Sequence record: MZ375255.1
Source of the DNA: Escherichia phage T7
Strand: one strand, 5' to 3'
Length of the DNA: 37,752 bases
This document shows positions 1-37,752 of this stretch, piece after piece. The position numbers were made by a program, and so were the translations under genes. The notes under the pieces were generated by a model that did not search any database, had not been told where the DNA came from, and was given only the letters and a program-made list of their open reading frames with translations. Every line of letters begins with the position of its first letter. The first letter of the stretch is position 1.

Positions 1-140
1 TCTCACAGTGTACGGACCTAAAGTTCCCCATAGGGGTACCTAAAGCCCAGCCAATCACCTAAAGTCAACCTTCGGTTGACCTTGAGGGTTCCCTAAGGGT
101 TTGTCTTTGGGTGTTACCTTGAGTGTCTCTCTGTGTCCCT
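1..140 (+). repeat. Left direct terminal repeat (TR), 140 bp, identical to 37613..37752
   Basis: Exact 140-nt identity between window start and end; begins TCTCACAGTGTACGG as in T7 TR. Confidence 0.95.
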
Positions 141-1258: not shown

Positions 1259-1389
1259 TGTCTACTACCAACGTGCAATACGGTCTGACCGCTCAAACTG
1301 TACTTTTCTATAGCGACATGGGGCGGCGTGGCATAGACGAAAGGAAAAGGTTAAAGCCAAGAAACTCGCCGCACTTGAACAGGCACTAG
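1258..1389 (+). pseudogene. 0.4: Chimeric remnant of gene 0.4: first ~21 codons fused out of frame to 3' end of gene 0.6 by deletion
   Basis: ATG overlaps ocr stop (TAATG); [21 protein letters not shown] then unrelated 22 residues to stop at 1387-1389. Confidence 0.7.
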
Positions 1390-7021: not shown

Positions 7022-7044
7022 TTTTACGACTCACTAAAGGAGGT
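7022..7044 (+). promoter_or_regulatory. T7 promoter phi1.5, with non-native T at -16 and -15
   Basis: TTTTACGACTCACTAAAGGAGGT; -14..+6 match phi1.5, upstream 3 nt replaced at deletion junction. Confidence 0.75.
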
Positions 7045-7427: not shown

Positions 7428-8009
7428 TGGGACTGTTAGATGGTGAAGCCTGGGAAAAAGAAAACCCGCCAGTACAAGCAACTGGGTGTATAGCTTGCTT
7501 AGAGAAAGATGACCGTTATCCACACACCTGTAACAAAGGAGCTAACGATATGACCGAACGTGAACAAGAGATGATCATTAAGTTGATAGACAATAATGAA
7601 GGTCGCCCAGATGATTTGAATGGCTGCGGTATTCTCTGCTCCAATGTCCCTTGCCACCTCTGCCCCGCAAATAACGATCAAAAGATAACCTTAGGTGAAA
7701 TCCGAGCGATGGACCCACGTAAACCACATCTGAATAAACCTGAGGTAACTCCTACAGATGACCAGCCTTCCGCTGAGACAATCGAAGGTGTCACTAAGCC
7801 TTCCCACTACATGCTGTTTGACGACATTGAGGCTATCGAAGTGATTGCTCGTTCAATGACCGTTGAGCAGTTCAAGGGATACTGCTTCGGTAACATCTTA
7901 AAGTACAGACTACGTGCTGGTAAGAAGTCAGAGTTAGCGTACTTAGAGAAAGACCTAGCGAAAGCAGACTTCTATAAAGAACTCTTTGAGAAACATAAGG
8001 ATAAATGTT

Positions 8010-9117: not shown

Positions 9118-9537
9118 GTGGAACTGCGGGAGAAAATCCTTGAGCGAATCAAGGTGACTTCCTCTGGGTGTTGGGAGTGGCAGGGCGCTACGAACAATAA
9201 AGGGTACGGGCAGGTGTGGTGCAGCAATACCGGAAAGGTTGTCTACTGTCATCGCGTAATGTCTAATGCTCCGAAAGGTTCTACCGTCCTGCACTCCTGT
9301 GATAATCCATTATGTTGTAACCCTGAACACCGTTCCATAGGAACTCCAAAAGAGAACTCCACTGACATGGTAAATAAGGGTCGCTCACACAAGGGGTATA
9401 AACTTTCAGACGAAGACGTAATGGCAATCATGGAGTCCAGCGAGTCCAATGTATCCTTAGCTCGCACCTATGGTGTCTCCCAACAGACTATTTGTGATAT
9501 ACGCAAAGGGAGGCGACATGGCAGGTTACGGCGCTAA
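9118..9537 (+). CDS. 2.8: Gp2.8, HNH-motif protein, paralog of gp7.7 (139 aa, GTG start)
   Basis: GTG start directly after 2.5 stop; HSCDNPLCCNPEH motif; clear similarity to 17872..18264. Confidence 0.8.
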   Translation: MELREKILERIKVTSSGCWEWQGATNNKGYGQVWCSNTGKVVYCHRVMSNAPKGSTVLHSCDNPLCCNPEHRSIGTPKENSTDMVNKGRSHKGYKLSDEDVMAIMESSESNVSLARTYGVSQQTICDIRKGRRHGRLRR

Positions 9538-9985
9538 AGGAATCCGAAAGGTTGGAGCGTTTCGCTCTGGCCTAGAGGACAAGGTTTCAAAGCAGTTGGA
9601 ATCAAAAGGTATTAAATTCGAGTATGAAGAGTGGAAAGTGCCTTATGTAATTCCGGCGAGCAATCACACTTACACTCCAGACTTCTTACTTCCAAACGGT
9701 ATATTCGTTGAGACAAAGGGTCTGTGGGAAAGCGATGATAGAAAGAAGCACTTATTAATTAGGGAGCAGCACCCCGAGCTAGACATCCGTATTGTCTTCT
9801 CAAGCTCACGTACTAAGTTATACAAAGGTTCTCCAACGTCTTATGGAGAGTTCTGCGAAAAGCATGGTATTAAGTTCGCTGATAAACTGATACCTGCTGA
9901 GTGGATAAAGGAACCCAAGAAGGAGGTCCCCTTTGATAGATTAAAAGGAAAGGAGGAAAGAAATAATGGCTCGTGTACAGTTTAA
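9518..9985 (+). CDS. 3: Endonuclease I (Holliday junction resolvase), C-terminus altered by 1-nt frameshift (155 aa vs 149 aa native)
   Basis: MAGYGAKGIRKV...; ends ...DRLKGKEERNNGSCTV instead of ...DRLKRKGGKK; A4 run at 9943-9946. Confidence 0.85.
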   Translation: MAGYGAKGIRKVGAFRSGLEDKVSKQLESKGIKFEYEEWKVPYVIPASNHTYTPDFLLPNGIFVETKGLWESDDRKKHLLIREQHPELDIRIVFSSSRTKLYKGSPTSYGEFCEKHGIKFADKLIPAEWIKEPKKEVPFDRLKGKEERNNGSCTV

Positions 9986-10421
9986 ACAACGTGAATCTAC
10001 TGACGCAATCTTTGTTCACTGCTCGGCTACCAAGCCAAGTCAGAATGTTGGTGTCCGTGAGATTCGCCAGTGGCACAAAGAGCAGGGTTGGCTCGATGTG
10101 GGATACCACTTTATCATCAAGCGAGACGGTACTGTGGAGGCAGGACGAGATGAGATGGCTGTAGGCTCTCACGCTAAGGGTTACAACCACAACTCTATCG
10201 GCGTCTGCCTTGTTGGTGGTATCGACGATAAAGGTAAGTTCGACGCTAACTTTACGCCAGCCCAAATGCAATCCCTTCGCTCACTGCTTGTCACACTGCT
10301 GGCTAAGTACGAAGGCGCTGTGCTTCGCGCCCATCATGAGGTGGCGCCGAAGGCTTGCCCTTCGTTCGACCTTAAGCGTTGGTGGGAGAAGAACGAACTG
10401 GTCACTTCTGACCGTGGATAA
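9966..10421 (+). CDS. 3.5: T7 lysozyme (N-acetylmuramoyl-L-alanine amidase; T7 RNAP inhibitor), 151 aa
   Basis: MARVQFKQRESTDAIFVHCSATKPS...; 151 aa. Confidence 0.97.
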   Translation: MARVQFKQRESTDAIFVHCSATKPSQNVGVREIRQWHKEQGWLDVGYHFIIKRDGTVEAGRDEMAVGSHAKGYNHNSIGVCLVGGIDDKGKFDANFTPAQMQSLRSLLVTLLAKYEGAVLRAHHEVAPKACPSFDLKRWWEKNELVTSDRG

Positions 10422-12291
<1,870 letters not shown>

Positions 12292-12294
<3 letters not shown>

Positions 12295-12314
12295 TACGAC
12301 TCACTAAAGGAGAC
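12292..12314 (+). promoter_or_regulatory. T7 promoter phi4.3
   Basis: TAATACGACTCACTAAAGGAGAC. Confidence 0.9.
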
Positions 12315-12319
12315 ACACC

Positions 12320-12334
12320 AAATTCTTTGAGTAA
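12320..12334 (+). pseudogene. 4.3: Gene 4.3 remnant (last ~15 nt only; start codon and body deleted)
   Basis: phi4.3 followed after 5 nt by aaattctttgagtaa and then gene 4.5 RBS; no ORF present. Confidence 0.55.
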
Positions 12335-12353
12335 TCAAACAGGAGAAACCATT

Positions 12354-12623
12354 ATGTCTAACGTAGCTGAAACTATCCGTCTATCCGATACAGCTGACCA
12401 GTGGAACCGTCGAGTCCACATCAACGTTCGCAACGGTAAGGCGACTATGGTTTACCGCTGGAAGGACTCTAAGTCCTCTAAGAATCACACTCAGCGTATG
12501 ACGTTGACAGATGAGCAAGCACTGCGTCTGGTCAATGCGCTTACCAAAGCTGCCGTGACAGCAATTCATGAAGCTGGTCGCGTCAATGAAGCTATGGCTA
12601 TCCTCGACAAGATTGATAACTAA
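12354..12623 (+). CDS. 4.5: Gp4.5 (89 aa)
   Basis: MSNVAETIRLSDTADQWNRRVHINV...; RBS caggagaaacc. Confidence 0.85.
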   Translation: MSNVAETIRLSDTADQWNRRVHINVRNGKATMVYRWKDSKSSKNHTQRMTLTDEQALRLVNALTKAAVTAIHEAGRVNEAMAILDKIDN

Positions 12624-12667
12624 GAGTGGTATCCTCAAGGTCGCCAAAGTGGTGGCCTTCATGAATA
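12624..12667 (+). promoter_or_regulatory. RNase III site R4.7
   Basis: gagtggtatcctcaaggtcgccaaagtggtggccttcatga hairpin. Confidence 0.55.
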
Positions 12668-12690
12668 CTATTCGACTCACTATAGGAGAT
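12668..12690 (+). promoter_or_regulatory. T7 promoter phi4.7 (now directly upstream of gene 5)
   Basis: CTATTCGACTCACTATAGGAGAT. Confidence 0.8.
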
Positions 12691-12714
12691 ATTACCTCAA
12701 TAGGAGAAATCAAT

Positions 12715-14829
12715 ATGATCGTTTCTGACATCGAAGCTAACGCCCTCTTAGAGAGCGTCACTAAGTTCCACTGCGGGGTTATCTACGACTACTCCACCGC
12801 TGAGTACGTAAGCTACCGTCCGAGTGACTTCGGTGCGTATCTGGATGCGCTGGAAGCCGAGGTTGCACGAGGCGGTCTTATTGTGTTCCACAACGGTCAC
12901 AAGTATGACGTTCCTGCATTGACCAAACTGGCAAAGTTGCAATTGAACCGAGAGTTCCACCTTCCTCGTGAGAACTGTATTGACACCCTTGTGTTGTCAC
13001 GTTTGATTCATTCCAACCTCAAGGACACCGATATGGGTCTTCTGCGTTCCGGCAAGTTGCCCGGAAAACGCTTTGGGTCTCACGCTTTGGAGGCGTGGGG
13101 TTATCGCTTAGGCGAGATGAAGGGTGAATACAAAGACGACTTTAAGCGTATGCTTGAAGAGCAGGGTGAAGAATACGTTGACGGAATGGAGTGGTGGAAC
13201 TTCAACGAAGAGATGATGGACTATAACGTTCAGGACGTTGTGGTAACTAAAGCTCTCCTTGAGAAGCTACTCTCTGACAAACATTACTTCCCTCCTGAGA
13301 TTGACTTTACGGACGTAGGATACACTACGTTCTGGTCAGAATCCCTTGAGGCCGTTGACATTGAACATCGTGCTGCATGGCTGCTCGCTAAACAAGAGCG
13401 CAACGGGTTCCCGTTTGACACAAAAGCAATCGAAGAGTTGTACGTAGAGTTAGCTGCTCGCCGCTCTGAGTTGCTCCGTAAATTGACCGAAACGTTCGGC
13501 TCGTGGTATCAGCCTAAAGGTGGCACTGAGATGTTCTGCCATCCGCGAACAGGTAAGCCACTACCTAAATACCCTCGCATTAAGACACCTAAAGTTGGTG
13601 GTATCTTTAAGAAGCCTAAGAACAAGGCACAGCGAGAAGGCCGTGAGCCTTGCGAACTTGATACCCGCGAGTACGTTGCTGGTGCTCCTTACACCCCAGT
13701 TGAACATGTTGTGTTTAACCCTTCGTCTCGTGACCACATTCAGAAGAAACTCCAAGAGGCTGGGTGGGTCCCGACCAAGTACACCGATAAGGGTGCTCCT
13801 GTGGTGGACGATGAGGTACTCGAAGGAGTACGTGTAGATGACCCTGAGAAGCAAGCCGCTATCGACCTCATTAAAGAGTACTTGATGATTCAGAAGCGAA
13901 TCGGACAGTCTGCTGAGGGAGACACAGCATGGCTTCGTTATGTTGCTGAGGATGGTAAGATTCATGGTTCTGTTAACCCTAATGGAGCAGTTACGGGTCG
14001 TGCGACCCATGCGTTCCCAAACCTTGCGCAAATTCCGGGTGTACGTTCTCCTTATGGAGAGCAGTGTCGCGCTGCTTTTGGCGCTGAGCACCATTTGGAT
14101 GGGATAACTGGTAAGCCTTGGGTTCAGGCTGGCATCGACGCATCCGGTCTTGAGCTACGCTGCTTGGCTCACTTCATGGCTCGCTTTGATAACGGCGAGT
14201 ACGCTCACGAGATTCTTAACGGCGACATCCACACTAAGAACCAGATAGCTGCTGAACTACCTACCCGAGATAACGCTAAGACGTTCATCTATGGGTTCCT
14301 CTATGGTGCTGGTGATGAGAAGATTGGACAGATTGTTGGTGCTGGTAAAGAGCGCGGTAAGGAACTCAAGAAGAAATTCCTTGAGAACACCCCCGCGATT
14401 GCAGCACTCCGCGAGTCTATCCAACAGACACTTGTCGAGTCCTCTCAATGGGTAGCTGGTGAGCAACAAGTCAAGTGGAAACGCCGCTGGATTAAAGGTC
14501 TGGATGGTCGTAAGGTACACGTTCGTAGTCCTCACGCTGCCTTGAATACCCTACTGCAATCTGCTGGTGCTCTCATCTGCAAACTGTGGATTATCAAGAC
14601 CGAAGAGATGCTCGTAGAGAAAGGCTTGAAGCATGGCTGGGATGGGGACTTTGCGTACATGGCATGGGTACATGATGAAATCCAAGTAGGCTGCCGTACC
14701 GAAGAGATTGCTCAGGTGGTCATTGAGACCGCACAAGAAGCGATGCGCTGGGTTGGAGACCACTGGAACTTCCGGTGTCTTCTGGATACCGAAGGTAAGA
14801 TGGGTCCTAATTGGGCGATTTGCCACTGA
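12715..14829 (+). CDS. 5: DNA polymerase gp5 (704 aa)
   Basis: [12 protein letters not shown] (exo motif DxE), family A polymerase motifs; RBS aggagaaatcaat. Confidence 0.98.
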
Positions 14830-14844
14830 TACAGGAGGCTACTC

Positions 14845-14863
14845 CAAAGGCATAAAACTATAG
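14845..14863 (+). pseudogene. 5.3: Gene 5.3 remnant (last 19 nt incl. stop TAG; rest deleted)
   Basis: Only 45 nt separate gene 5 stop and gene 5.5 start; no ORF. Confidence 0.6.
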
Positions 14864-14874
14864 GAGAAATTATT

Positions 14875-15174
14875 ATGGCTATGACAAAGAAATTTAAAGT
14901 GTCCTTCGACGTTACCGCAAAGATGTCGTCTGACGTTCAGGCAATCTTAGAGAAAGATATGCTGCATCTATGTAAGCAGGTCGGCTCAGGTGCGATTGTC
15001 CCCAATGGTAAACAGAAGGAAATGATTGTCCAGTTCCTGACACACGGTATGGAAGGATTGATGACATTCGTAGTACGTACATCATTTCGTGAGGCCATTA
15101 AGGACATGCACGAAGAGTATGCAGATAAGGACTCTTTCAAACAATCTCCTGCAACAGTACGGGAGGTGTTCTGA
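14875..15174 (+). CDS. 5.5: Gp5.5, H-NS-binding protein (99 aa)
   Basis: MAMTKKFKVSFDVTAKMSSDVQAILEKDMLHLCKQVG...; 99 aa. Confidence 0.92.
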   Translation: MAMTKKFKVSFDVTAKMSSDVQAILEKDMLHLCKQVGSGAIVPNGKQKEMIVQFLTHGMEGLMTFVVRTSFREAIKDMHEEYADKDSFKQSPATVREVF

Positions 15175-15383
15175 TGTCTGACTACCTGAAAGTGCTGCAA
15201 GCAATCAAAAGTTGCCCTAAGACTTTCCAGTCCAACTATGTACGGAACAATGCGAGCCTCGTAGCGGAGGCCGCTTCCCGTGGTCACATCTCGTGCCTGA
15301 CTACTAGTGGACGTAACGGTGGCGCTTGGGAAATCACTGCTTCCGGTACTCGCTTTCTGAAACGAATGGGAGGATGTGTCTAA
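15174..15383 (+). CDS. 5.7: Gp5.7, inhibitor of host sigma-S (69 aa)
   Basis: MSDYLKVLQAIKSCPKTFQSNYVRNNASL...; overlaps 5.5 stop. Confidence 0.9.
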   Translation: MSDYLKVLQAIKSCPKTFQSNYVRNNASLVAEAASRGHISCLTTSGRNGGAWEITASGTRFLKRMGGCV

Positions 15384-15541
15384 TGTCTCGTGACCTTGTG
15401 ACTATTCCACGCGATGTGTGGAACGATATACAGGGCTACATCGACTCTCTGGAACGTGAGAACGATAGCCTTAAGAATCAACTAATGGAAGCTGACGAAT
15501 ACGTAGCGGAACTAGAGGAGAAACTTAATGGCACTTCTTGA
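15383..15541 (+). CDS. 5.9: Gp5.9, RecBCD inhibitor (52 aa)
   Basis: MSRDLVTIPRDVWNDIQGYIDSLERENDSLKNQLMEADEYVAELEEKLNGTS; acidic. Confidence 0.9.
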   Translation: MSRDLVTIPRDVWNDIQGYIDSLERENDSLKNQLMEADEYVAELEEKLNGTS

Positions 15542-16430
15542 CCTTAAACAATTCTATGAGTTACGTGAAGGCTGCGACGACAAGGGTATCCTTGTGATGG
15601 ACGGCGACTGGCTGGTCTTCCAAGCTATGAGTGCTGCTGAGTTTGATGCCTCTTGGGAGGAAGAGATTTGGCACCGATGCTGTGACCACGCTAAGGCCCG
15701 TCAGATTCTTGAGGATTCCATTAAGTCCTACGAGACCCGTAAGAAGGCTTGGGCAGGTGCTCCAATTGTCCTTGCGTTCACCGATAGTGTTAACTGGCGT
15801 AAAGAACTGGTTGACCCGAACTATAAGGCTAACCGTAAGGCCGTGAAGAAACCTGTAGGGTACTTTGAGTTCCTTGATGCTCTCTTTGAGCGCGAAGAGT
15901 TCTATTGCATCCGTGAGCCTATGCTTGAGGGTGATGACGTTATGGGAGTTATTGCTTCCAATCCGTCTGCCTTCGGTGCTCGTAAGGCTGTAATCATCTC
16001 TTGCGATAAGGACTTTAAGACCATCCCTAACTGTGACTTCCTGTGGTGTACCACTGGTAACATCCTGACTCAGACCGAAGAGTCCGCTGACTGGTGGCAC
16101 CTCTTCCAGACCATCAAGGGTGACATCACTGATGGTTACTCAGGGATTGCTGGATGGGGTGATACCGCCGAGGACTTCTTGAATAACCCGTTCATAACCG
16201 AGCCTAAAACGTCTGTGCTTAAGTCCGGTAAGAACAAAGGCCAAGAGGTTACTAAATGGGTTAAACGCGACCCTGAGCCTCATGAGACGCTTTGGGACTG
16301 CATTAAGTCCATTGGCGCGAAGGCTGGTATGACCGAAGAGGATATTATCAAGCAGGGCCAAATGGCTCGAATCCTACGGTTCAACGAGTACAACTTTATT
16401 GACAAGGAGATTTACCTGTGGAGACCGTAG
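15528..16430 (+). CDS. 6: 5'-3' exonuclease gp6 (300 aa)
   Basis: 300-aa ORF, FEN/5'-3' exonuclease family; overlaps 5.9 end. Confidence 0.95.
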   Translation: MALLDLKQFYELREGCDDKGILVMDGDWLVFQAMSAAEFDASWEEEIWHRCCDHAKARQILEDSIKSYETRKKAWAGAPIVLAFTDSVNWRKELVDPNYKANRKAVKKPVGYFEFLDALFEREEFYCIREPMLEGDDVMGVIASNPSAFGARKAVIISCDKDFKTIPNCDFLWCTTGNILTQTEESADWWHLFQTIKGDITDGYSGIAGWGDTAEDFLNNPFITEPKTSVLKSGKNKGQEVTKWVKRDPEPHETLWDCIKSIGAKAGMTEEDIIKQGQMARILRFNEYNFIDKEIYLWRP

Positions 16431-16530
16431 CGTATATTGGTCTGGGTCTTTGTGTTCTCGGAGTGTGCCTCATTTCGTGGGGCCTTTGGGACTTAGCCAG
16501 AATAATCAAGTCGTTACACGACACTAAGTG
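16418..16530 (+). pseudogene. 6.3: Gene 6.3 region with apparent frame discontinuity (GTG frame stops at 16502-16504; C-terminal coding continues in -1 frame to TGA 16528-16530)
   Basis: GTG-initiated hydrophobic peptide VETVAYIGLGLCVLGVCLISWGLWDLAR then stop; ...IIKSLHDTK* in adjacent frame. Confidence 0.45.
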
Positions 16531-16550
16531 ATAAACTCAAGGTCCCTAAA

Positions 16551-16573
16551 TTAATACGACTCACTATAGGGAG
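16551..16573 (+). promoter_or_regulatory. T7 class III promoter phi6.5
   Basis: TAATACGACTCACTATAGGGAGA. Confidence 0.95.
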
Positions 16574-16628
16574 ATAGGGGCCTTTACGATTATTACTTTA
16601 AGATTTAACTCTAAGAGGAATCTTTATT

Positions 16629-16883
16629 ATGTTAACACCTATTAACCAATTACTTAAGAACCCTAACGATATTCCAGATGTACCTCGTGCAACCGCTGAG
16701 TATCTACAGGTTCGATTCAACTATGCGTACCTCGAAGCGTCTGGTCATATAGGACTTATGCGTGCTAATGGTTGTAGTGAGGCCCACATCTTGGGTTTCA
16801 TTCAGGGCCTACAGTATGCCTCTAACGTCATTGACGAGATTGAGTTACGCAAGGAACAACTAAGAGATGATGGGGAGGATTGA
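16629..16883 (+). CDS. 6.5: Gp6.5 (84 aa)
   Basis: [27 protein letters not shown]...; RBS agaggaatc. Confidence 0.88.
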
Positions 16884-37412: not shown

Positions 37413-37460
37413 ATGTTCCGCTTATTGTTGAACCTACTGCGGCATAGAGTCAAGTCCTAA
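37413..37460 (+). pseudogene. 19.5: Gene 19.5 truncated to 15 codons by ~189-bp deletion
   Basis: RBS aagggaggag; MFRLLLNLLRHRVKS* where reference gp19.5 is 49 aa. Confidence 0.7.
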
Positions 37461-37612: not shown

Positions 37613-37752
37613 TCTCACAGTGTACGGACCTAAAGTTCCCCATAGGGGTACCTAAAGCCCAGCCAATCACCTAAAGTCAACCTTCGGTTGACCTTGAGGG
37701 TTCCCTAAGGGTTTGTCTTTGGGTGTTACCTTGAGTGTCTCTCTGTGTCCCT
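37613..37752 (+). repeat. Right direct terminal repeat (TR), 140 bp, identical to 1..140
   Basis: Exact identity with window positions 1..140. Confidence 0.95.

Follow-up and report, generated by a model that had tools for sequence, protein, structure and literature searches.

Gene 4.7 is precisely missing and R4.7 and phi4.7 lie immediately upstream of the DNA polymerase gene in a phage T7 genome with seven deletions

The window analysed here, a whole stretch of 37,752 nt, is a genome of phage T7, about 99.9% identical to and collinear with the reference V01146 apart from seven deletions. At the locus under study, gene 4.5 (12354..12623, plus strand) is intact, with an open reading frame (ORF) of 89 amino acids (MSNVAETIRL...KIDN) for the toxin-antitoxin inhibitor Gp4.5, which matches Pfam PF17574 (E = 2e-62) and is 100% identical to T7 13584-13853. 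The next gene on the same strand is gene 5 (12715..14829), encoding a DNA polymerase of 704 amino acids with its native start (MIVSD) and one substitution relative to T7, K404T. The stop codon of gene 4.5 (TAA, 12621-12623) forms the left border of a spacer that runs to the gene 5 ATG at 12715. An earlier note on this DNA had placed 91 nt between the two genes and had put the R4.7 hairpin, the promoter phi4.7 (+1 at 12685), and the gene 5 ribosome-binding site (RBS) within them; the spacer does measure 91 nt (12624-12714) and all three elements were located there.

The R4.7 RNase III processing hairpin (12624..12673, plus strand) is unchanged from T7 and is predicted to form a stable, irregular hairpin (-23.1 kcal/mol; z = -4.05; 0 of 200 shuffled sequences as stable), sited 3' of gene 4.5, where the wild type has gene 4.7 next. 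There is no Rfam family for R4.7, and an Rfam scan of positions 12200-13000 gave no match at E ≤ 1. R4.7 is named among the RNase cleavage sites of T7 (PMC6938266), and cleavage there by host RNase III is established in the literature for the wild-type phage.

The T7 RNA polymerase class II promoter phi4.7 (-17 to +6; 12668..12690, plus strand) was placed by a match to the promoter core and by the T7 annotation. Its core, CGACTCACTATAGG, lies at 12673-12686 with 0 mismatches and is one of 14 such sites in the window, against 0.01 expected; the +1 is G12685, to which the annotated T7 +1 (13915) maps. The promoter block is 100% identical to T7 and positions +1 to +12 are unchanged, with the sequence departing from T7 only from +13 on, and T7 RNA polymerase is predicted to start at G12685 in the deletion context. 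The first transcribed bases, GGAGAT (12685-12690), constitute the former Shine-Dalgarno element of gene 4.7, now orphaned, while the Shine-Dalgarno element of gene 5, AGGAGAAA (12702..12709, plus strand; T7 14340-14347), is native and is retained to the right of the deletion junction. The elements that remain at the locus (R4.7, phi4.7, and the gene 5 Shine-Dalgarno and start) are base-for-base the same as in wild-type T7 (V01146 13584-16467).

What separates the two genomes at this locus is gene 4.7 itself. The earlier note had proposed an alignment to T7 as the check on its claim that the 408-bp ORF is absent with junctions at its start and stop codons, and that alignment bears the claim out at single-base resolution, with the two V01146 blocks adjoining without gene 4.7 between them. 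In BLAST, window positions 12318-12696 correspond to T7 13548-13926 (100% over 379 nt) and positions 12697-14844 correspond to T7 14335-16482, with 1 mismatch in 2,148 nt that falls ~1.2 kb from the junction. The missing segment, T7 13927-14334, is the annotated coding sequence from ATG through TAA. The junction (12696..12697, plus strand) brings T7 13926 directly against T7 14335, scarless and free of inserted bases. Unlike bases stand at the two breakpoints (c|A at the left one, A|t at the right one), so the junction cannot be slid and the microhomology is 0 bp. Two features of the locus bear on its origin: the flanks match T7 over arms of at least 50 bp around the loss of a whole annotated gene with neither scar nor marker, and there is no direct repeat (0 bp) of the kind that would mark a repeat-mediated event. 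The earlier structural reading of the excision is supported at every number.

In wild-type T7, the phi4.7 leader is separated from the gene 5 ATG by the 408 bp of gene 4.7 and a further 18 nt, which makes gene 5 the second cistron; in the window it is the first. It follows from this arrangement that gene 5 would be the promoter-proximal cistron on both the phi4.7-initiated and the R4.7-processed mRNA. The distance from the +1 to the ATG agrees with the 30-nt leader that had been claimed, the transcript itself being a prediction, and these 30 nt carry two Shine-Dalgarno-like elements. If the R4.7 cut is at T7 13892 (Dunn and Studier 1983), which is assumed here and corresponds to about window 12662, the processed gene 5 mRNA is predicted to have a leader of roughly 53 nt. 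Expression of gene 5 may be altered by the loss of gene 4.7. The predicted folds give no grounds for occlusion of the gene 5 RBS: structure in the leader initiated at phi4.7 is not significant (z = 0.14), and both the Shine-Dalgarno element and the ATG are unpaired in the centroid. In the wild-type context, the minimum-energy fold weakly pairs part of the gene 5 RBS region and the centroid does not. These predicted folds provide no basis for a large change in gene 5 translation. A scan for sigma-70 promoters found none and a scan for terminators found a sole terminator-like site within gene 5, so no such new element was made at the junction.

The excision also changes the reading frame context of the polymerase. 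Wild-type gene 4.7 is in the gene 5 frame, which its TAA closes 6 codons before the polymerase ATG. This TAA was the sole in-frame stop nearby, and without it the frame stays open as far upstream as an ATG at 12568, 49 codons away, with a second in-frame upstream ATG at 12661, inside the R4.7 hairpin. Because the in-frame stop is lost, sibling records (see below) start the polymerase at a TTG corresponding to window position 12613, 34 codons upstream; this TTG has no obvious Shine-Dalgarno element and lies inside gene 4.5, and it is therefore regarded as an annotation artefact. It is conceivable, though quite unlikely, that the loss of gene 4.7 affects gp5 itself, either through an N-terminal extension of 18 amino acids (from ATG 12661) or 49 amino acids (from ATG 12568) on read-through RNA that escapes RNase III, or through a shift in gp5 dosage that contributes to plaque size or selects for K404T. 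A longer gp5 made from unprocessed read-through RNA is improbable.

The gene 4.7 deletion is one of seven in the window, which together leave nine genes missing (0.4, 0.5, 0.6, 1.4, 3.8, 4.3, 4.7, 5.3, and 19.5; about 2.1 kb in total). The deletions fall visibly into two classes: scarless deletions at gene boundaries without homology, and deletions at short direct repeats typical of spontaneous loss. Four of the seven (1.4, 4.3, 4.7, and 5.3) start exactly at an ATG and are scarless. Like that of gene 4.7, the deletion of gene 1.4 (T7 7608-7763, 156 bp; window 7024..7025, plus strand) runs exactly from ATG to TAA with no microhomology. Those of gene 4.3 (T7 13352-13549, 198 bp; window 12316..12320, plus strand) and gene 5.3 (T7 16483-16820, 338 bp; window 14844..14845, plus strand) both begin at the ATG and end just short of the RBS of the next gene, the former keeping the last 15 nt along with the gene 4.5 RBS and having a junction that is ambiguous by 3 nt, the latter keeping the last 19 nt with the gene 5.5 RBS and having no microhomology. 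The deletion of gene 4.3 brings phi4.3 directly before the RBS of gene 4.5, closely mirroring phi4.7 and gene 5. In gene 3.8 the deletion (T7 11254-11545, 292 bp; window 10513..10514, plus strand) is internal to the gene and spares the start region of gene 4A; since it does not start at the annotated ATG, one simple rule does not cover every deletion. The remaining two are associated with direct repeats: genes 0.4-0.6 (about T7 1341-1903 missing, 563 bp; window 1321-1332) with a repeat of about 12 bp, and gene 19.5 (189 bp within about T7 39420-39617; window 37444-37452) with the 9-bp repeat ATAGAGTCA.

The exact 4.7 junction recurs in other deposited genomes. A 50-nt junction probe, with 25 nt per side and either half too short to seed a match alone, matched 15 of 50,697 phage records, all of them in the MZ3752xx accession run. 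The four of these records that were examined are titled "Mutant Escherichia phage T7 clone" (MZ375260, T7_140S; MZ375267, T7_180L; MZ375270, T7_190S; and MZ375273, T7_210L) and share the window's 4.7 junction over the 50 nt tested, while other records of the same run keep gene 4.7. Compared end to end, MZ375270, MZ375260, and MZ375273 are collinear with the window, 99.9% identical, and without any other large rearrangement. The window differs from these three full records by 17-24 substitutions and a few small indels and is thus a sibling clone, not base-identical to them. A pair of further records, OL964749/50, lack only 100 bp at the 4.7 locus, which fits the second, 'cassette-100' design of Yuan et al.

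These mutant clones resemble those of a published genome-reduction study, CiPGr (Yuan, Shi, Jiang, Ma, Nucleic Acids Res 2022, PMC9825161), in which hosts carry Cas9 and a plasmid library of 200-bp cassettes, each of which pairs a spacer with a repair template that has two arms of 50 bp, for the deletion of whole genes. The design avoids regulatory elements, and T7 gp4.7 and gp5.3 are its worked examples. Plaques of two sizes, large (L) and small (S), were sampled at intervals of 10 transfers, and sequencing covered 60 T7 mutants; over transfers 1-100 T7 lost nine genes (2 kbp), deletions of gp4.7 were detected in the populations by PCR, and spontaneous 'large fragment' losses were reported at gp0.3-0.6, gp4.3-4.7, and gp19.5 (PMC9825161). 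The clone names T7_140S, 180L, 190S, and 210L fit this sampling scheme, and the two repeat-mediated deletions of the window (0.4-0.6 and 19.5) lie at two of the three loci of spontaneous loss in that study. The MZ3752xx records are tied to Yuan et al. by this fit of clone names, design, and counts. Taken together, the window is very probably a genome-reduced laboratory mutant of T7, one clone of the CiPGr series, from which gene 4.7 was excised by the Cas9/HR 'cassette-gene' method.

A spontaneous deletion, produced by slippage or illegitimate recombination at short repeats and favoured by a shorter genome or the loss of a costly gene, is one alternative explanation: T7 selected for growth under heat does lose this region spontaneously, by deletions that span 769-1,019 bp of genes 4.2-4.7 (Cole, Tran, Ellington, Virus Evol 2021, PMC8923235), and the window itself holds the two deletions of the spontaneous type described above. 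Gene 4.7 is gone from the heat-adapted phages too, and both cases show that it is dispensable. However, the deletions reported by Cole et al. have 7-10 bp of homology at their ends, with intergenic repeats of 7-8 bp (TAATCAA, AGGAGAAA, and TTCTTGA), and the two that remove whole genes take 4.5, R4.7, and phi4.7 along with 4.7 (PMC8923235), whereas the deletion in the window has 0 bp of homology, spares all three, has both ends on the codon boundaries of one gene, and is accompanied by three other deletions in the same genome that also start exactly at an ATG. The heat-adaptation deletions were therefore rejected as a source of the 4.7 junction, and a spontaneous origin is very unlikely.

Descent from a natural relative of T7 that never carried gene 4.7 could draw on the status of gp4.7 as an accessory gene, its 135-amino-acid product having no match to a Pfam family and a function described as unknown (PMC12798971). 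Against this, neither diverged flanks nor environmental isolates with the junction were found: the flanking blocks are those of T7 (379 of 379 nt to the left, 1 mismatch in 2,148 nt to the right), the junction is confined to the MZ3752xx mutant records, and 559 phage records, virtually all close relatives of T7 among them, have a gp4.7 homologue, making such an ancestry scarcely credible. Collapse of 408 bp through an assembly or sequencing artefact, which might be suspected from other possible assembly oddities in the window (at both ends a terminal repeat 20 bp shorter, and in a gene 3 homopolymer a change of 1 nt) and which the earlier note had named as what would overturn its reading, was ruled out for practical purposes by the 15 separate deposits with the junction beside others of the same run that retain gene 4.7, by the absence of any repeat flanking the deleted segment that could cause a collapse, and by the PCR evidence for gp4.7 deletions in the CiPGr populations (PMC9825161).

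Under excision by the 'cassette-gene' method, Cas9 would have cut inside gene 4.7 and the break would have been repaired from a plasmid-borne template whose two 50-bp arms abut the ATG and the stop codon of the gene. As every protospacer in gene 4.7 would be lost in the product, the recombinant would be immune to Cas9 and would for that reason be enriched over serial transfers. Such a repair product would keep R4.7, phi4.7, and the gene 5 RBS in the 91-nt spacer and would turn gene 5 into the first cistron. This Cas9/HR route is what we infer from an architecture, an identity to T7, and a shared junction that were each observed directly. The excision of gene 4.7 is very probably a published laboratory construct and is not natural variation. 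Gene 4.7 is on the list of non-essential T7 genes, and other methods have since been used to delete it (PMC12153263). In the SMART Red-ccdB T7 chassis (mBio 2025, PMC12153263) the same non-essential block, drawn from the same list of non-essential genes, was likewise lost scarlessly by engineering, but there gp4.3-gp4.7 were taken out as one block by recombineering on cloned fragments, not as single genes by Cas9 selection.

Beyond the deletions, the window carries a number of smaller changes, several of which are common to the compared siblings. In the DNA polymerase, K404T (window 13925, T7 15563) is present in MZ375260 and MZ375273 and absent from MZ375270, and thus shows no strict linkage to the deletion of gene 4.7. 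The promoter of the major capsid gene, phi10, has a G>T change at +1 (TATAGG to TATATG; window 20928, T7 22904) that is common to MZ375270, MZ375260, and MZ375273 and hence arose in the evolving lineage; with the initiating nucleotide of the strongest T7 promoter altered, reduced transcription of the capsid gene would be expected. At phiOL the annotated +1 has changed from A to G (window 385, T7 405), and the site now matches the consensus TATAGG. A dinucleotide change in gene 2.8 (TA to GT; window 9332-9333, T7 10071-10072) and eight more substitutions in genes 7.3, 11, 12, 16, and 17 (17595, 17631, 22709, 24043, 31043, 32091, 32196, and 33287) are for the most part common to sibling clones and are probably lineage mutations from serial transfer.

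Two further differences concern repeated sequence. In gene 3 (endonuclease I) a run of five A is reduced to four (window 9943-9946, T7 10678-10682), giving a frameshift about 8 codons before the stop, so that the ORF runs into the start of gene 3.5 and stops at 9985. A 50-nt probe detected this shortened run in MZ375267, MZ375277, and MZ375283 as well; it may be a genuine mutation or a miscall that recurs at this homopolymer. At 140 bp (window 1-140 and 37613-37752), the terminal repeat is shorter than the 160 bp of T7 and the 142-143 bp of the siblings, with the loss relative to T7 alike at both ends and consisting of an 18-bp stretch (T7 99-116) and two single bases. A genuine deletion that was copied from one end to the other could explain this shortening, as could an effect of assembly.

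For those who re-use the sibling records, the DNA polymerase is annotated 34 codons too long there, since the deletion removed the in-frame stop. Scans of genomes should recognise engineered ones, which are marked in this case by exact ATG-to-stop excisions without microhomology, beside spontaneous deletions that bear repeats. As an ordinary and very probably engineered deletion, the excision carries little biological weight; what it says of T7 is that the phage can do without gene 4.7 in the laboratory and that phi4.7, R4.7, and the gene 5 RBS tolerate being juxtaposed, as the genome-reduction paper had already shown.
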